NCBI GenBank assembly: GCA_028282785.1
Contig: JANQHE010000071.1
Coordinates: 4,423 to 68,422 of the forward strand
Length of the DNA: 64,000 nucleotides
Source of the DNA: Bacteroidales bacterium
GTDB lineage: Bacteria; Bacteroidota; Bacteroidia; Bacteroidales; UBA12077
Direction: 5' to 3'
Part shown: one piece after another, positions 28,246-60,558 of the stretch
Layout of the letters: each line of letters opens with the position of its first letter
Position numbering within the stretch: the stretch's first letter is position 1
Notes under the pieces: model-generated
The model's input: only the letters and a program-made list of their open reading frames with translations
Told to the model about the DNA's origin: nothing
The model's database searches: none
Position numbers and translations under genes: made by a program

Positions 28246-28248
28246 ATG

Positions 28249-28321
28249 TGACCCAACAGGGGCTCGAACCCTGGACCCCATCCTTAAAAGGGATGTGCTC
28301 TACCAACTGAGCTATTGAGTC
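28249..28321 (-). tRNA. tRNA-Lys (anticodon UUU), copy 1
   Basis: 73-nt cloverleaf on the minus strand: GACTCAA-TA-GCTC-AGTTGGTA-GAGC-A-CATCC-CTTTTAA-GGATG-GGGTC-CAGGG-TTCGAGC-CCCTG-TTGGGTC-A. No encoded CCA. Confidence 0.9.
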
Positions 28322-28496: not shown

Positions 28497-28499
28497 ATG

Positions 28500-28572
28500 T
28501 GACCCAACAGGGGCTCGAACCCTGGACCCCATCCTTAAAAGGGATGTGCTCTACCAGCTGAGCTATTGAGTC
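28500..28572 (-). tRNA. tRNA-Lys (anticodon UUU), copy 2
   Basis: Identical to copy 1 except for one D-loop base (AGCTGGTA vs AGTTGGTA). Confidence 0.9.
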
Positions 28573-54107: not shown

Positions 54108-55205
54108 TTACTCGTTTATTAACTCTTCATACATTTTCTTGGTTTTTAGAATAGTCATTTCAGTATTGAGTTCGGTCCTTATTCTTTCTTTTGATTTTTC
54201 ACCCATTAGTTTGCATAATTCACGATCATTGTATATGCGCATAATGGCTTTACTTAAATCTTTAGGATTTTTAGCACGAACAACCAATCCATTTTCACCA
54301 TGAACAACTAATTCCGTATTTCCGGGGATATCGGTAATAACAGGAGTAGTACCTAAGGACATTGCTTCAAGGACCGATTTTGTAATGGATTCACCTTTAA
54401 TTGAAGGTAGTACGAATGAATCGCATGCAGCAACTATATTTAACACATCTTTCCTAAATCCCAGTATATGTACTTTATCTGCCTTATCATCTGAATTTAT
54501 TATTTTCATGTGTTTGGGTATGTCCATATTTCTTCCGGCAATTAAAAGATGAATAGTTGCATCGGATGGAAGTAAGTTCATAGCTTTTAATAAATACGGA
54601 ACTCCCTTCATTCTTCTGTTGTTAGCGACATTTATCAATAAAAATGCGTCTTCGGGAATACCTAACTCACTCTTAATGTCAATAGGTTTATAATCTTCGT
54701 ACCACTTAATATCATGTCCCTTGTTAATGGTAACCGGAACTTTTGTTTTAAAGATTTTTTGTCTTCTGATCAGCTTTTCAACACCAATTGAATTACAGAA
54801 GACTCTATCGACCCTGGGATGTAAGTATTTTAAGTAGGCCGTAGGATCCCACCAATGTATATTTCCTGTGTAACCTCTATATAGTACAACTTTTACAGGT
54901 AATCGTTTGGCGGCTTTTATTCCGGTTTGTATGGCCCTGGAATTAAACAAGTGAATAATATCAATGCCATTCTCAATAATGTAATCACGCACTCTTTCTA
55001 TTTCAGAACGTTTACCTTTATGATCAGGATGAAATTCGACTACCGTTATACCGGCATCTTCAAATCTTTTTTGCATCTGTGTTCCGGGGTAAGTCATAAT
55101 GTGGACATTAAATCCCATTTTAGCTAACCCCATAAAAATATTTGCTTCGGGACGGGTTGAGTGATAATCTCTGTAGTTGCTTATAACCAGTACGTTGATT
55201 GACAT
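54108..55205 (-). CDS. Glycosyltransferase family 4 (GT-B fold)
   Basis: 365 aa. C-terminal EGESITKSVLEAMSLGTTPVITDIPGNTELV (E-x7-E-type motif). Confidence 0.85.
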   Translation of the reverse strand: MSINVLVISNYRDYHSTRPEANIFMGLAKMGFNVHIMTYPGTQMQKRFEDAGITVVEFHPDHKGKRSEIERVRDYIIENGIDIIHLFNSRAIQTGIKAAKRLPVKVVLYRGYTGNIHWWDPTAYLKYLHPRVDRVFCNSIGVEKLIRRQKIFKTKVPVTINKGHDIKWYEDYKPIDIKSELGIPEDAFLLINVANNRRMKGVPYLLKAMNLLPSDATIHLLIAGRNMDIPKHMKIINSDDKADKVHILGFRKDVLNIVAACDSFVLPSIKGESITKSVLEAMSLGTTPVITDIPGNTELVVHGENGLVVRAKNPKDLSKAIMRIYNDRELCKLMGEKSKERIRTELNTEMTILKTKKMYEELINE

Positions 55206-55321
55206 TTTTAGTATGTTAAGATTATTTTATAAAAACATGGCTAAAATAAGTTTTTTTTAAAGCAAACAGAGCGTTCTTAAGATAAAACTTATTTTATAGC
55301 AAATAAAGTGGGGGACTTATT

Positions 55322-55984
55322 CTAAAATTCAGGCTCAATACTGTTTCTTAACGAAATATAGTTTTCATAATCGTTTTTGTATTCCATTCTCTTTTTTACG
55401 GTTTCATCGAAGTTACCGTTTAATCCAATCAGTAGCTCCGTAACCTCACGAACAGCATTTTCTCCTCCCTGATTAGCACTTATATAATCGCATAATCCAT
55501 TATTTAAAATAAATTCCTTGAATAATGGACTTGCATTCCTTTTTACGCAAAAGCTCAGATTACAAATTTCAGCAGCGCTAAGATCCAAAATATCATCAAA
55601 AATAAATGCGGTTTGATCTAAAGAGAATCCATTTATATCAGCTAATTTCTTAATTGCTTCGCCTTTATCCTTAGCTTTTAGTAAAACTGCATTTAAATGC
55701 TCTCTTTTAGCAAAGTTTCTTGCAGTTAGATTATTCTCACCGGTAACAATAGCAACAAAAGGTAATTTATTGTGTTTTAGCCAATAACTAAAACGTAACA
55801 TGTTTATGCCCATTGAATCCGCTTCGGAAAATGGACTACCATCAGGATTGGATTTTTGCCCATTATTAAAAACACCATCCCAGTCGAATATAAAAGCATG
55901 AATATCTTTTAATTTGACTGAAATTTCGCGTGCAGGGTTTATAAAATGGCCTCCAATCTGTTCAAATTGTTTTTGAATACTCAT
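55322..55984 (-). CDS. HAD-IIIA phosphatase, KdsC-like (Kdo-8-phosphate phosphatase candidate)
   Basis: 220 aa. Nucleophile motif FIFDWDGVF, IVTGENN, FIFDDILD. Its start overlaps the stop of the upstream gene in the kdsA operon. Confidence 0.6.
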   Translation of the reverse strand: MSIQKQFEQIGGHFINPAREISVKLKDIHAFIFDWDGVFNNGQKSNPDGSPFSEADSMGINMLRFSYWLKHNKLPFVAIVTGENNLTARNFAKREHLNAVLLKAKDKGEAIKKLADINGFSLDQTAFIFDDILDLSAAEICNLSFCVKRNASPLFKEFILNNGLCDYISANQGGENAVREVTELLIGLNGNFDETVKKRMEYKNDYENYISLRNSIEPEF

Positions 55985-56991
55985 TAAAGTAAATATTGTA
56001 CATCGATCAAACCTACGAATTTATCTCCGTCTTTTGCAACCAATGTATCTACTTTTTGATCTTTAATTAATTGTTTAGCTTCGAAAAGACTGGCATTTAC
56101 ATCAATACTTACAGGGTCATGATCATCCAGTTCGGAAAGGTTATATTCGTGAACATCCTTACCATTTTCATGTAAAATTCTGCGAACATCTCCATCTGTA
56201 AAAATACGCCTGATAGTGTTTTCATTTTTCATAACAACCACTGCACCCAGTTTCGACTTAGTCATTAATAATAATGCATCTTTAACTTTTCCGGCTCCGT
56301 TTATTTTTATGTCTTCTGTTCTGACTATATCGCCAACTCTGGTGGTTAATATTCTAGTATCCTCAATGAATTGATTCGTACCAATGGTGGTAAAGTGATT
56401 TTCTGTTAGCTTTTTCATGATCTTCCAGGGAATAGTGCACGTATGTACGCCTATATTTAAAGCATTTTTAACATGTTCTACATGGCGAACAGAAGAAAAC
56501 ATCACTTTTGATTTGTAGTTGTATTTTTGGGTAATTTCAACACATTCTTTTACTAGCCCCAAAGCATCATGTCCCTGATCTTGTAAACGACCTACCAATG
56601 GGCAAACATAAGTAGCTCCGGCTGCAAATGCCATATATGCCTGCTGCACTGTATAGACCAAATGTAAATTAACCATTAATCCTTGATTAACCAACATTTT
56701 ACATGCTCTTGTTCCTTCAAGTGAAATTGGAATTTTAAATACTGTTTTTTCTTTTGATAAACCTAGCTCGATTAATCTTTGAGCTTCAGTCACAATTTCT
56801 TCTGCAGTGTCTCCTAATGCTTCAACCTGAAGAATGTCAACGTATTTTGCAATCTCCAACATCTGTGCATCGATATCTTTCACACCTTCCCGTACCATAA
56901 AGGTTGGGGTAGTGGTAAGACCTGTCAAGTAGCCCAGTTTACTGGCTTCTTTTATCTCTTCTAAATTAACTGAATCTAAATATAGTTCCAT
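55984..56991 (-). CDS. Fusion protein: fructose-6-phosphate aldolase/TalC-type TIM barrel + KdsD-type CBS pair
   Basis: 335 aa. N-terminal part: MELYLDS...GLTTTP...VFKIPIS(Lys)...EGTRACKML...FSSV, as in FsaA/TalC. C-terminal part: RVGDIVRTEDI...LGAVVV...IFTDGDVRRIL...VDTLVAKDGDKFVGLIDVQYLL, as in the KdsD/KpsF CBS domains. Confidence 0.75.
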   Translation of the reverse strand: MELYLDSVNLEEIKEASKLGYLTGLTTTPTFMVREGVKDIDAQMLEIAKYVDILQVEALGDTAEEIVTEAQRLIELGLSKEKTVFKIPISLEGTRACKMLVNQGLMVNLHLVYTVQQAYMAFAAGATYVCPLVGRLQDQGHDALGLVKECVEITQKYNYKSKVMFSSVRHVEHVKNALNIGVHTCTIPWKIMKKLTENHFTTIGTNQFIEDTRILTTRVGDIVRTEDIKINGAGKVKDALLLMTKSKLGAVVVMKNENTIRRIFTDGDVRRILHENGKDVHEYNLSELDDHDPVSIDVNASLFEAKQLIKDQKVDTLVAKDGDKFVGLIDVQYLL

Positions 56992-56992
56992 T

Positions 56993-57802
56993 TTATCTGT
57001 ATTTTTTTTCTGTTGAATGTAATTCTATTAAAGGTTTTAAAAATTCTTCCAGATCAGCCACACATAGTTGACTTGCAGCATCGCACAAGGCTTCTGAAGG
57101 ATTTGGATGTGTTTCAATAAATACACCATCAATACCCGAAGCAACACCAGCACGTGCAAGAGTAGGCAGGTATTCTCTAAGCCCGCCTTTTGGGTCAGCG
57201 CTGGGAATACCGTATTTACGAATGGAATGCGTTATATCGAAAATAACCGGATATCCCAATTGTCTTAGATCGTAAAAGCTTCTTGGATCAACGATCAAAT
57301 CGTTATATCCAAATGTATAACCACGTTCGGTAAGTAATATGTTCTTGTTCCCTGTTGATTCAATTTTCTCAACCGGTTTAATCATATTTTTCGGAGAAAT
57401 AAACTGACCATGTTTTAGATTTACAACTTTACCCGTTTTGGCTGCCTCAACCACCAAAGTGGTTTGCATGCATAAATAAGCCGGAATTTGAATGATATCA
57501 AGTACTTCGCTTGCCGGTTTAATCTGCTCGGGAAAGTGAACATCCGAAACAACCGGAACATCAAATTCAGTTTTAATTTTTTGTAGTATTTCCAAACCTT
57601 CTTCGATCCCCGGTCCTGAGTAATAATCTACAGAACTTCGGTTATCTTTCATAAATGAGGATTTAAATACAAGCGGGAGAGAAAGTTTTTGAGAAACCTC
57701 CTTTAGTTTCTCTGCAGTTTCCATCATGATACGCTCATTTTCAACAACACAAGGACCTGATATAAGAAAAAAACTGCTCCAATCGATTAATTTGTCATTC
57801 AT
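56993..57802 (-). CDS. kdsA: 3-deoxy-8-phosphooctulonate (Kdo-8-P) synthase, metal-dependent class
   Basis: ATG at 57802 (MNDKLIDWSSFFLISGPCVVE...). Conserved FKSSFMKDNRSS, IQIPAYLCMQT, LTERGYTFGY, IFDITHS, ARAGVASGIDGVFIETHPNP. Confidence 0.9.
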   Translation of the reverse strand: MNDKLIDWSSFFLISGPCVVENERIMMETAEKLKEVSQKLSLPLVFKSSFMKDNRSSVDYYSGPGIEEGLEILQKIKTEFDVPVVSDVHFPEQIKPASEVLDIIQIPAYLCMQTTLVVEAAKTGKVVNLKHGQFISPKNMIKPVEKIESTGNKNILLTERGYTFGYNDLIVDPRSFYDLRQLGYPVIFDITHSIRKYGIPSADPKGGLREYLPTLARAGVASGIDGVFIETHPNPSEALCDAASQLCVADLEEFLKPLIELHSTEKKYR

Positions 57803-57932
57803 ATCTTTTCGCGTTCTGCTAACTTCAAATAATTGGATTAACGTTCGACGACGAAAATAAGTAAATAGAGTAAACACAAAGTATTCTGTGCATTAACCTT
57901 TTGTTACCTTAGTGTATATTAATTGTTATGAG

Positions 57933-58864: not shown

Positions 58865-59016
58865 TTTACCTATTGGAAAAGTAATATTAGCTTTAGAAAT
58901 AGTAAATACCTAAAAGGATATAATTTGAATTAATTTTAAAACATTAACACATTATCGGTGTTTCCTTTACACTATTTGTTCATAAAATATTTTTCGAAAG
59001 TTATTTTTAATGGAAA

Positions 59017-60558
59017 ATGGCAAAAATAAAGTATACTTCTGAAGAACGTTGGACACTCATAGCAACCATTTTGGCATCAAGTCTTGTGTTTATTGATGGT
59101 ACTGCCTTGAATATTGCTTTGCCCGCTTTACAGGTTGATTTGGGTTTATCTGGTGCACAACTTATGTGGATTGTAAATTCGTATGCTTTATTTTTATCTG
59201 CACTATTGTTATTGGGTGGGGCCATGGGAGATCGGTATGGCAGAAACAAAATTTTTGGTATTGGCTTATTTATATTTATGGTTGCATCGCTGGTGTGCGG
59301 AATCTCCCAAAACTCTATACAACTTATTAGTGCCAGAGCTTTCCAGGGTGTGGGAGGAGCTTTGCTAACTCCGGGGAGTTTATCTATTATTACGGCAAGA
59401 TTTTCTTCAAACAAAGTGGGTAGTGCCATTGGTTTGTGGTCGACCTTCAGTGCCTTAACAGCCATAATCGGTCCTGTGTTGGGAGGGTGGCTTGCCGAAT
59501 TGGGTTTGTGGCGCGTAATATTCTTTATTAATATACCTTTTTCAATATTTGTTCTTTGGGTAATTTTTAATCGCGTACAGGAAAGTAAAAACTCCGAAGT
59601 GGTTAAACTTGATTACCTGGGTGCGTTCCTTGCAACTATCGGTTTGGCTGGTATTACATACGGATTTATTGAATCCTCAAACCGTGGATTCAACGATATG
59701 ATAATCGTTGCTTCATTAGTTATAGGAGGAGCAGGATCCATAGGATTTTTATTATCGCAACATTATGGAAAAAAACCTATGATGCCATTGAGGTTATTTA
59801 AATCGGTGGATTTTAGTATTACCAATACAGGAACCTTATTTATATACGGAGCTTTAAGTGCTACTTTGTTCTTTTTACCTTTAAATCTTGTTCAAGTGCA
59901 GGGATATACCGAAAGTCAGGTTGGGTTAGCCATTTTACCTACCATTGTATTAATAACCATATTATCAACTATTTCGGGAAGGTTGTCGGATAAATTTGGT
60001 GCAAGGTTGTTTTTAACTTTTGGCCCGTTAATAACGGGTTTTGCTTTTCTTTTATATGGTTTTCAAGGATTAACCAATGGGCCATCGGTATATTGGACAA
60101 GCTTTTTTATTCCAAGTGCTTTATTGGGGCTAGGCATGGGATTAACGGTTGCTCCGCTTACCACAACAGTAATGAAATCGGTTTCAAAAAACAATAGTGG
60201 CGTTGCGTCAGGTGTAAATAATACAGTTTCGCGCATGTCAGGGGTACTTTCCGTTGCATTAATGGGAGCTATGGTTATGTATTATTTTAAAATTCATTTA
60301 ATTACACAGGCGCAAGAAATAAATGTATCTTCAGAAATTATTGAAGGCTTAAAAAACGATGCGATCAATCTTGGAGCAACCAGGCCGCCAGAAAATACTC
60401 CGGCAAACCTGATAAATGGATTGAATTTGGTCATTAAAAGCTCTTTTATCAGATCGTTTAACAGTGTGGCGTATATTTCAGCCCTGGCAGCCTGGATAAC
60501 TGCTATAATGTGTTTTACACTTTTGAAAAAGCATAAAGTAAATGTTCAGGAAAATTGA
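59017..60558 (+). CDS. MFS transporter, DHA2 (14-TMS EmrB/QacA-like) drug:H+ antiporter family
   Basis: 513 aa with ~14 TM helices. Motif A-like GGAMGDRYGRNKIF and motif C-like GPVLGGWL. Confidence 0.88.
   Translation: MAKIKYTSEERWTLIATILASSLVFIDGTALNIALPALQVDLGLSGAQLMWIVNSYALFLSALLLLGGAMGDRYGRNKIFGIGLFIFMVASLVCGISQNSIQLISARAFQGVGGALLTPGSLSIITARFSSNKVGSAIGLWSTFSALTAIIGPVLGGWLAELGLWRVIFFINIPFSIFVLWVIFNRVQESKNSEVVKLDYLGAFLATIGLAGITYGFIESSNRGFNDMIIVASLVIGGAGSIGFLLSQHYGKKPMMPLRLFKSVDFSITNTGTLFIYGALSATLFFLPLNLVQVQGYTESQVGLAILPTIVLITILSTISGRLSDKFGARLFLTFGPLITGFAFLLYGFQGLTNGPSVYWTSFFIPSALLGLGMGLTVAPLTTTVMKSVSKNNSGVASGVNNTVSRMSGVLSVALMGAMVMYYFKIHLITQAQEINVSSEIIEGLKNDAINLGATRPPENTPANLINGLNLVIKSSFIRSFNSVAYISALAAWITAIMCFTLLKKHKVNVQEN

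Follow-up and report, generated by a model that had tools for sequence, protein, structure and literature searches.

A transaldolase-family barrel joined to a KdsD-type CBS pair in the kdsA-kdsC gene order: a predicted supplier of arabinose 5-phosphate for Kdo synthesis

[quoted passage not shown] In the standard view, restated in a study of Flavobacteriaceae, the synthesis of Kdo 8-phosphate (Kdo8P) begins with KdsD, and the pathway proceeds from KdsD via KdsA and KdsC to KdsB (PMC9478572). A stretch of 64,000 nucleotides from a Bacteroidales bacterium (GenBank assembly GCA_028282785.1, contig JANQHE010000071.1, positions 4,423 to 68,422), here called the window, raises the question of what replaces KdsD when a different protein is encoded in its place. 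Between kdsA and a kdsC-like gene, the window carries a gene for a fusion protein in which a barrel of the transaldolase/fructose-6-phosphate aldolase (TAL/FSA) family is followed by a CBS pair of the KdsD/KpsF type. We consider it somewhat more probable than a coin toss that this fusion supplies arabinose 5-phosphate (A5P) to KdsA by covalent aldolase-type chemistry, with glycolaldehyde and D-glyceraldehyde 3-phosphate (G3P) as the most likely substrates. The specific reaction of glycolaldehyde with G3P carries the larger share of this confidence and, taken by itself, is a tentative assignment.

The order of genes on the minus strand is kdsA, the fusion, the KdsC-like gene and a gene for a GT4-family glycosyltransferase. 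A single nucleotide separates the kdsA stop codon from the start codon of the fusion (TAA-A-ATG), and the stop codon of the fusion overlaps the start of the KdsC-like gene by one nucleotide (TAATG), so the junctions bear out the arrangement given in a preliminary description of the locus. The kdsA product scores above both equivalog cut-offs for Kdo8P synthase (NF003543, 342 bits versus 242; TIGR01362, 334 bits versus 314) and matches Pfam DAHP_synth_1 with an E-value of 8e-65. For the KdsC-like product the best NCBIfam match is KdsC (PRK09484, E 2.3e-13), yet the score of 50 bits is well below the cut-off of 208, and a Pfam search gave no match. Its best matches in the Protein Data Bank (PDB) are KdsC 4um5 (1.2e-11) and 1j8d, and its residues DWDGV are aligned with DVDGI of the KdsC match, corresponding to the DxDG nucleophile motif. 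As judged from the sequence, 'divergent KdsC-like phosphatase' would be a fair description of this protein. From the gene linkage, i.e. the position between kdsA and the kdsC-like gene and the translational coupling, we infer that the fusion acts as an A5P supplier.

The domain architecture of the fusion was assessed with family models, PDB sequence searches and structure prediction. Pfam assigned residues 3-201 to TAL_FSA (E 1.8e-37) and also detected CBS. The NCBIfam model fsa_talC_mipB (TIGR00875) matched residues 1-211 with 169.9 bits, compared with a cut-off of 245.95, and the fusion stays below all NCBIfam equivalog cut-offs for transaldolases and FSA. The best transaldolase-named model, TIGR02134, gave 72.8 bits against a cut-off of 282, and talAB gave 56.5 against 396. 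When residues 1-213 were searched against PDB sequences, type-5 transaldolases were the best matches (1vpx, 4e-37; 3r8r, 5e-36), whereas Escherichia coli FSA was found with an E-value of about 1e-17. By sequence, the barrel is closer to the type-5 transaldolases than to the E. coli FSA. An AlphaFold model of the fusion built on 26 family members (pLDDT 91.2) is confident through the linker helix and folds residues 1-212 into a (beta/alpha)8, TIM-type barrel, which Foldseek superimposed on 1vpx, 3s0c and 3r8r with TM scores of 0.91-0.93 and a root-mean-square deviation of about 1.6 Å.

The C-terminal part gave a different set of matches. Residues 214-329 correspond to positions 152-267 of the 268 in the KpsF model (E 2.5e-18), and residues 213-334 to positions 200-322 of the 328 in the KdsD model (E 1.3e-14), in both cases the CBS tail only. 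Its best sequence matches in the PDB are the CBS pairs of A5P isomerases (4o9k, 1.9e-13; 3fna, which is E. coli KdsD, 1.5e-11; also 3k2v), and when the CBS pair was modelled alone (pLDDT 91.7), the six best fold matches were all A5P isomerase CBS pairs (3k2v, 4o9k, 3fna). The motif FTDGD-RR is invariant in the CBS pair. These matches point to a derivation of the CBS pair from KdsD/KpsF. No SIS domain was matched in the fusion with Pfam, NCBIfam or any other library scanned. The fusion thus belongs to the superfamily TAL/FSA (PF00923), the class I aldolase barrels, and stands outside the KdsD/KpsF family: the SIS domain is absent, and only the CBS module of that family is carried. On these points, as well as on the sequence motifs quoted for the protein, the preliminary description was correct.

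To compare active sites, the window protein and 120 relatives were aligned with the transaldolases of Thermotoga maritima and Bacillus subtilis, taken from the PDB search, and with E. coli FsaA, whose residue numbers agree with those in the literature (PMC6099348, PMC3962226). Nine residues are invariant and common to the canonical enzymes, namely Asp6, Thr26, Thr27, Glu57, Lys86, Asn108, Arg135, Ser167 and Arg169. Lys86 is present in 121 of 121 family members, and Arg135, Ser167 and Arg169, which make up the phosphate site, are likewise invariant in the 121 relatives. Four other positions have been exchanged. Position 28 is Asn in both transaldolase and FSA and an invariant Thr in the family of the window protein (Bacteroidota branch); position 110 is Thr in both and an invariant His in the family; position 130, Ser in transaldolase and Ala in FSA, is an invariant Cys; and position 132, Phe in transaldolase and Tyr in FSA, is an invariant Leu. 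Thus, of the canonical type-5 transaldolase set (Asn28, Glu57, Asn108, Thr110, Ser130 and Phe132, or N35, E96, N154, T156, S176 and F178 in TalB numbering) only Glu57 and Asn108 are kept, and the positions aligned with the FSA set (Gln59, Tyr131 and Ala129 of FsaA) hold Glu57, Leu132 and Cys130. The subfamily is instead recognized by Asp6, Glu57, Lys86, Asn108, His110, Cys130, Leu132, Arg135, Ser167 and Arg169.

FSA Tyr131, the equivalent of position 132, serves to release or protonate the donor. Other exchanged positions have published roles. In FSA the side chain of N28 hydrogen bonds to the 4-OH oxyanion of the electrophile, and replacements of N28 abolished activity (PMC6099348). TalB S176 and FSA A129 set the polarity of the donor C1 pocket, the exchange F178Y turns the transaldolase TalB into an aldolase, and phosphate is bound by TalB R181 (PMC3962226). 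Because the changed positions carry assigned roles in the TalB and FSA literature, the alignment indicates that the covalent machinery and the phosphate site are kept, while the donor pocket and the proton-relay region are remodelled. The combination of conserved machinery with invariant exchanges at positions 110, 130 and 132 sets the barrel apart from normal transaldolases and from FSA alike. The FSA/TalC identity proposed earlier therefore stands at the level of the TAL/FSA family and fails below it: the barrel is nearer to the type-5 transaldolases, whose Glu57 it retains, the Tyr of FSA is missing, and His110, Cys130 and Leu132 form a signature of its own.

The two-domain protein occurs across the Bacteroidota. 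All of the 120 best database relatives (56-94% identity) consist of both domains in 333-347 residues, and the same architecture, at 333-341 residues, is found in thousands of database entries; the names given to the relatives are only 'transaldolase (family protein)', 'TalC/MipB family' and 'CBS domain-containing protein'. A scan with one genome per species identified at least 595 species representatives that encode the fusion, with carriers in Saprospiraceae, Flavobacteriales, Bacteroidales, Chitinophagales, Sphingobacteriales and Cytophagales, the last including Thermonema rossianum, Thermoflexibacter ruber, Raineyaceae, Cyclobacteriaceae and Flammeovirgaceae. Gene order was counted in 80 species loci retrieved from among these representatives. 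The order kdsA-fusion-kdsC was present in 40 of them, kdsC followed the fusion immediately in 63 (all arrangements), and kdsA was located somewhere in the locus in 46. A KdsB-type gene was found within the retrieved flanks in 12 of the 80. The succession of fusion and kdsC mirrors the adjacent kdsD and kdsC of E. coli. The order kdsA-fusion-kdsC is also found in two complete chromosomes (4.8 and 5.0 Mb) and in two Thermonema assemblies. This recurrence across independent assemblies, complete chromosomes included, rules out an artefactual join by mis-assembly or frameshift, and the join was rightly taken as genuine.

Three contigs with Bacteroidota-type fusions carry other labels, namely 'Proteobacteria bacterium', 'Candidatus Saccharibacteria bacterium' and 'Akkermansia sp.' (L015, L069 and L071), and two of them have kdsC directly downstream. 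They are likely to be mis-binned or mislabelled contigs of metagenome-assembled genomes (MAGs) and not true occurrences outside Bacteroidota.

How far the barrel extends beyond this phylum was investigated by searching 1.84 billion representatives exhaustively with only the barrel as query, followed by residue typing and a rough neighbour-joining tree. In this tree all proteins with His110, Cys130 and Leu132 group apart from the canonical transaldolases and FSAs. Among the 150 nearest representatives listed, 77 have N-T-S-F at positions 28, 110, 130 and 132, as in canonical transaldolase, and 54 have the full canonical 11-residue set, which is also present in the cyanophage TalC; FSA-type representatives have N-T-A-Y or N-T-S-Y at these positions. 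The His-Cys-Leu subfamily consists of two branches, one with Thr28 (Bacteroidota and some viral contigs) and one with Asn28, and both hold CBS-fused members of about 335 residues as well as stand-alone members of about 215-220 residues. Among 120 relatives of one stand-alone member, 36 were stand-alone and 84 fused. The full 11-residue signature was retained in 132 of 133 proteins of the window family and in 101 of 115 of the Asn28 set, in which 12 further proteins differ at Asn108 only; it was also complete in 26 of 26 catalytically intact open reading frames (ORFs) of metagenomic and viral loci. The stand-alone members are, like the fusion, below the TIGR00875 cut-off (175.8 bits).

In nearly every sampled context from outside Bacteroidota or from viruses, the subfamily gene adjoins a Kdo8P synthase gene or lies within about 8 kb of one. 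The gene for a marine stand-alone protein of 218 residues overlaps by 4 nt with the stop of a Kdo8P synthase gene (337 bits versus 242); downstream of it, in a large glycan cluster, come genes for a 2-hydroxyacid dehydrogenase and for a cytidylyltransferase of the KdsB type. A stand-alone protein of 221 residues is found in the order kdsB, small ORF, kdsA, aldolase. A fusion in a Chloroflexota-labelled MAG has kdsA directly upstream (NF003543, 314 bits versus 242), another on a contig with 23% GC has the order kdsB-kdsA-fusion, and a third on a 'Heimdallarchaeota' MAG contig has the order kdsB, kdsA, an ORF of 151 residues, fusion, beside phage capsid and tail genes. Since the kdsA linkage holds with or without CBS, across lineages and viruses, the conserved functional unit is KdsA with the His-Cys-Leu aldolase, to which a CBS pair has been added in part of the subfamily. 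The earlier idea of a domain swap that kept the CBS module is thus right for the architecture of the window protein, whereas the CBS fusion turns out to be secondary. The proposed link to Kdo synthesis, on the other hand, is strengthened, as the same barrel subfamily accompanies Kdo8P synthase in viruses and lineages outside Bacteroidota.

Some of these contexts have features of their own. On the Heimdallarchaeota-labelled contig (GCA_021399335.1, JAAFKH010000085.1; L096), kdsB, several methyltransferases, kdsA and the fusion are followed by phage capsid, cement and tail-tape-measure genes. This contig probably represents a phage or prophage with a module for a Kdo-type sugar; its archaeal label may reflect binning and not origin. 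On marine metagenome contigs with 30% GC (L088:590-20657, also L089 and L090) the stand-alone aldolase is part of a long co-directional glycan cluster with two genes of the DAHP-synthase family (one Kdo8P-type, one DAHP/NeuB-like), a 2-hydroxyacid dehydrogenase, GT29 sialyltransferase-like genes, radical SAM/B12 enzymes and an aminotransferase, which suggests that a modified ulosonic acid is made and not plain Kdo. A small clade of barrel-CBS proteins has lost the catalytic residues: Lys86 is replaced by Arg or Ser and Asp6 by Glu, and Asn108, His110, Cys130, Leu132 and Arg135 are changed as well, with the CBS pair intact (GVFTDGDLRR; L086:10001-11005, L087:2448-3452, P0153, P0399-P0402, also P0155 and P0256). 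From their sequences these proteins look like pseudo-enzymes, and their genes, considered as a lead to a regulatory partner, adjoin an M61 peptidase gene and others unrelated to Kdo.

In the IMG/VR database, 17 viral contigs encode a member of the subfamily. In fifteen of these a kdsA-like gene adjoins the aldolase gene or lies no more than about 8 kb away, and in the remaining two the aldolase gene is at the contig end. A relative of KdsA itself is encoded by at least 570 viral contigs. In the 80 best of these viral kdsA loci (L115-L194), a direct neighbour is very often a gene for a KdsB-type cytidylyltransferase, and an A5P-supplying gene is absent from most of the loci; virus-encoded activation of Kdo-type sugars seems to be common, beyond the single report for a cyanophage (PMC12801897). 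GenBank phage genomes yielded only canonical proteins of the cyanophage TalC type, with less than 40% identity, and no cultured phage with a subfamily member. Cyanophage TalC served as a control, with the canonical signature and no kdsA neighbour in a stretch of 3.6 kb.

The surroundings of the aldolase genes were also searched for an isomerase of the SIS type. The probe consisted of residues 1-204 of E. coli KdsD and was validated as a full-length match to PF01380 (E 3e-37); the alignment with 3fna independently confirmed the CBS segment adjoining it. No SIS-type isomerase was found within 8-10 kb on either side in any of about 110 aldolase-carrying loci, and the window contains neither a SIS-like ORF nor a second transaldolase-like ORF. 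A SIS ORF in locus L091 was considered as an A5P isomerase and rejected, because it scores as GmhA-like (TIGR00441). Within 8 kb on either side of kdsA in the 80 best viral loci, five had the aldolase, three a SIS isomerase at the equivalent position beside kdsA or kdsB, none had both and 72 had neither. This pattern fits two alternative, optional suppliers of A5P. A phage-encoded supplier is plausible, since phages that need A5P for the arabinosylation of DNA encode their own SIS isomerase (PMC13326640). In two Bacteroidota MAGs, a canonical type-5 transaldolase (TTNP, N-C-T, S-P-F) is encoded about 6 kb from the fusion (L075:11498-12427 and L076:7122-7913), showing that both kinds of barrel coexist in one genome.

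In the proposed function, the fusion would take over the task that in KdsD normally falls to the SIS domain. Lys86 would form a Schiff base with C1 of an aldose 5-phosphate. Sterically, A5P is fructose 6-phosphate (F6P) minus C1, with the configuration of F6P C3-C5, and its C1 imine would put the phosphate exactly where the C2 imine of F6P puts it in transaldolase. Such a geometry would explain why FsaA accepts A5P, and the lack of the C1 hydroxymethyl group would explain the replacement of its contact residues Ser130 and Phe132, with Ser to Cys and Phe to Leu remodelling the pocket for the missing group. His110 takes the place of the Thr by which the catalytic water is positioned. Held on the enzyme as the enamine, glycolaldehyde would then be joined to G3P to give A5P, KdsA would condense A5P with phosphoenolpyruvate, and the KdsC-like phosphatase would subsequently remove the phosphate. 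The CBS pair is presumably regulatory and may keep feedback control of the pathway, with allosteric control probably exerted by the pathway nucleotide CMP-Kdo.

The reaction has a precedent, as stated in the preliminary description. FsaA cleaves A5P with a KM of 0.65 mM and a kcat of 3.6 s-1 (PMC6900487) and forms A5P from glycolaldehyde and G3P both in vitro and in vivo (PMC9947464). By analogy with E. coli FsaA, the interconversion of A5P with glycolaldehyde and G3P would be the most likely reaction, being the sole candidate with direct precedent. An isomerisation of ribulose 5-phosphate via a Schiff base was rejected, as it would trap a covalent Heyns/Amadori amine and not give the free aldose. 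A non-covalent ene-diol isomerase on the barrel is unparsimonious, because the whole Schiff-base apparatus is invariant.

Several observations weigh against the proposed function or against its details. Neither kdsA nor kdsC is located by the fusion in 12 of the 80 Bacteroidota loci, and the neighbours there show no consistent pattern. The viral split of five, three and none is too small to prove exclusivity. A SIS isomerase, including a single-domain enzyme as in Bacteroides fragilis, may be encoded beyond the flanks of 8-10 kb. The inactive paralogue clade shows that the scaffold can have non-catalytic roles. Free glycolaldehyde does not count among the standard metabolites of central metabolism, and the module has no conserved gene for its production, which weakens the reaction of glycolaldehyde with G3P, particularly for the phage modules. 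Furthermore, because the transaldolase-type Glu57 is kept and the Tyr for release or protonation of the donor in FSA is absent, aldolase and not transferase behaviour rests on the assumed role of His110. Support for A5P supply comes from sequence, the structure model and gene context.

The lack of a glycolaldehyde source is equally a point in favour of a different origin of A5P, namely from ribose 5-phosphate (R5P) by a net 2-epimerisation through the Schiff base on Lys86 without free glycolaldehyde. R5P could be cleaved between C2 and C3 to the bound glycolaldehyde enamine and G3P, and the bond could then be made again with C2 inverted; alternatively, C2 could be deprotonated and reprotonated on the other face. 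R5P and A5P are C2 epimers by established chemistry, the kept Glu57 and the gained His110 provide two potential acid/base groups, and a universal metabolite would suit self-contained modules in phages and accessory glycan clusters. In addition, TalB F178Y forms D-ribose 5-phosphate as a by-product from glycolaldehyde and G3P, which FsaA does not (PMC9947464). However, no enzyme of the family is known as an epimerase, and the wild-type forms of transaldolase and FSA show strict (3S,4R) selectivity (PMC6099348). The argument is based on one by-product of an engineered mutant, and the sequence does not separate it from the aldolase route. The conversion of R5P to A5P would be a reaction new to any enzyme, and we regard it as speculative and unlikely. 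If it nevertheless took place, the Kdo pathway would operate without the KdsD isomerase and without free glycolaldehyde. The reaction would be the native first step for hundreds of species of Bacteroidota, and in phages and accessory glycan clusters the gene would form, together with kdsA, a portable module of two genes.

A role in the Kdo pathway other than A5P supply is, in our judgement, distinctly doubtful. The fusion might be an overflow valve that cleaves A5P under control of the CBS pair, or it might deliver another aldose phosphate for a Kdo-like sugar, with A5P coming from a SIS isomerase elsewhere. FsaA indeed works well in the direction of cleavage (PMC6900487), the absence of SIS isomerases covers only the flanks of 8-10 kb, and in many of the contexts outside Bacteroidota the gene is part of a large accessory glycan cluster that also includes methyltransferases, radical SAM enzymes, aminotransferases and a second DAHP-synthase/NeuB-like gene, suggesting modified ulosonic acids. 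Yet one would not expect hundreds of species to encode a catabolic valve in the middle of kdsA-X-kdsC with translational coupling, or phage modules to carry one, the adjoining synthases score as true Kdo8P synthases with A5P as substrate, and none of the roughly 110 loci has a SIS isomerase nearby. It is quite improbable that the protein is an ordinary transaldolase or FSA of the pentose phosphate pathway with a CBS tail, adjacent to kdsA for a co-regulated supply of pentose phosphate, even though it shares full-length homology and its fold with the type-5 transaldolases, retains their Schiff-base Lys, Asp, Glu and phosphate site and is called a transaldolase in the databases. Three to four canonical active-site positions are replaced and fixed differently, the scores remain under every NCBIfam transaldolase and FSA cut-off, a canonical transaldolase is encoded nearby in the two MAGs mentioned above, the cyanophage TalC with its canonical signature is not linked to kdsA, and the linkage to kdsA persists for the stand-alone forms in viruses. 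A non-catalytic, ligand-binding barrel that regulates Kdo synthesis as a sensor or regulatory subunit would resemble the paralogues that lack Lys86, Asp6, Asn108, Arg135 and other residues but keep the CBS pair; those paralogues are not beside Kdo genes, and the essentially invariant catalytic residues (132 of 133 and 101 of 115 with the full signature) make this very improbable for the fusion. Finally, we attach next to no probability to an artefactual join of a transaldolase gene with the 3' end of kdsD, in view of the thousands of entries, the at least 595 species representatives and the complete chromosomes in which it recurs, the even composition at the junction and the confident model of the linker helix. 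Supply of A5P by covalent chemistry on the barrel remains the reading that we prefer.

The features of the locus are collected in the table. Base composition is even across the region, including the junction between barrel and CBS pair. A scan for promoter and terminator consensus sequences found no more sites than in shuffled sequence, with a consensus that omits Bacteroidota promoters, and so does not bear on the limits of the operon. The GT4 gene lies 116 nt downstream of the KdsC-like gene on the same strand and is possibly co-transcribed with the three genes upstream; it is not conserved next to the module in other loci.

Table. Features of the Kdo locus in the window, with positions counted from the first nucleotide of the window
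Feature	Position	Strand	Remarks
kdsA (Kdo8P synthase, 3-deoxy-8-phosphooctulonate)	56993-57802	-	269 aa from ATG at 57802, where homology begins; the longest ORF reaches GTG at 57877
Fusion of a His-Cys-Leu-type TAL/FSA-family barrel and a KdsD-type CBS pair; predicted A5P supplier	55984-56991	-	335 aa
Aldolase barrel domain, residues 1-212	56356-56991	-	Pfam TAL_FSA, Foldseek
KdsD/KpsF-type CBS pair, residues 213-335	55984-56355	-	Includes the stop codon; contains IFTDGDVRR; NCBIfam and PDB matches
Thr28 codon	56908-56910	-	Asn in transaldolases, FSA and the other subfamily branch
Lys86 codon, predicted Schiff-base lysine	56734-56736	-	Aligned with the catalytic Lys of type-5 transaldolases and Lys85 of FSA
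His110 codon	56662-56664	-	Thr in canonical transaldolases and FSAs
Cys130-Pro131-Leu132 codons	56596-56604	-	Ser-Pro-Phe in transaldolases, Ala-Pro-Tyr in FSA
KdsC-like HAD phosphatase, divergent; predicted Kdo8P phosphatase	55322-55984	-	220 aa
GT4-family glycosyltransferase	54108-55205	-	Pfam Glycos_transf_1, E 1.6e-31

Elsewhere in the window, two tandem tRNA-Lys(TTT) genes about 180 nt apart (28248-28321 and 28499-28572, minus strand) are the sole RNA genes detected. An ORF of 513 residues on the plus strand (59017-60558) appears by eye to encode a multi-pass membrane protein. An ORF of 152 residues (59007-59465, minus strand) is wholly antisense to it and is most likely spurious.

If the fusion does supply A5P, it would be a case of non-orthologous displacement of the first step in a core envelope pathway, and it would account for the kdsD step that seems to be missing from the genome-scale models of many Bacteroidota. 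Thousands of proteins that at present bear the name 'transaldolase' or 'CBS domain-containing protein' would receive a corrected annotation, and the carriers would be beyond the reach of KdsD inhibitors. The protein would represent either the first physiological role for A5P chemistry of the FSA type or a new epimerase reaction on a transaldolase scaffold. It could also serve as a natural, regulated A5P-forming catalyst for synthetic glycolaldehyde assimilation, which now relies on the promiscuous FsaA (PMC9947464). With the CBS pair of KdsD attached to another catalytic domain, the long unclear function of this CBS pair becomes directly testable, and the phage-borne modules of kdsA and aldolase suggest viral remodelling of host surface glycans. 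A description of a barrel-CBS fusion or of a natural aldolase route to A5P was not found in the literature, where 'A5P aldolase' appears only for the synthetic-biology use of E. coli FsaA, and NCBIfam release 20 (June 2026) has no model for the fusion, for which PGAP-style names are generic. With neither a paper nor a curated family model found, the fusion is apparently uncharacterised, as had been supposed.

Among known systems, the short type-5 transaldolases of about 215-225 residues (T. maritima TM0295, 1vpx; B. subtilis, 3r8r; Thermoplasma acidophilum, 3s0c) are the best match to residues 1-212. They share with the fusion the Schiff-base Lys, Asp6, the Glu acid/base, Asn108 and the Arg/Ser/Arg phosphate site. 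The fusion differs from them by the exchanges Thr110 to His, Ser130 to Cys, Phe132 to Leu and, in the Bacteroidota branch, Asn28 to Thr, as well as by the C-terminal CBS pair, and it is genomically tied to kdsA, not to pentose phosphate genes. E. coli FsaA (1l6w) has the same fold and Schiff-base chemistry and is the sole family member shown to interconvert A5P with glycolaldehyde and G3P. It has Gln59, Leu107, Ala129 and Tyr131, in contrast to Glu57, Asn108, Cys130 and Leu132 together with His110 in the window protein, and it carries no CBS pair and is not known to take part in Kdo synthesis; its use as 'arabinose-5-phosphate aldolase' belongs to synthetic biology.

KdsD, KpsF and GutQ, which combine SIS and CBS, have the same CBS pair including xFTDGDLRR, the same place in the pathway and the same predicted product, A5P. 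Their catalytic domain is SIS, whereas the fusion has an unrelated (beta/alpha)8 barrel instead, and the chemistry of KdsD is an ene-diol isomerisation of ribulose 5-phosphate, whereas that of the fusion would be of the covalent aldol or epimerase type. The PDB entry 4o9k is presumably a complex with CMP-Kdo. The single-domain SIS A5P isomerases (B. fragilis Q5LIW1, 3etn; phage RB69 gp55) have kept SIS and lost CBS, and the fusion is the opposite case. The B. fragilis enzyme was reportedly found by Cech et al. in 2014 to be feedback-inhibited by CMP-Kdo. Such single-domain enzymes demonstrate that the SIS and CBS parts of KdsD are separable and that Bacteroidota and phages use variant suppliers of A5P (PMC13326640). 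The 6-deoxy-6-sulfofructose transaldolase (8bc3) is a more distant match (E about 1e-21) with another substrate and pathway; it is a precedent for a short transaldolase scaffold neofunctionalised for a new sugar in a dedicated operon (PMC7491151). In the same manner, the His-Cys-Leu proteins are predicted to be a neofunctionalised subfamily of the transaldolase family that displaces KdsD.

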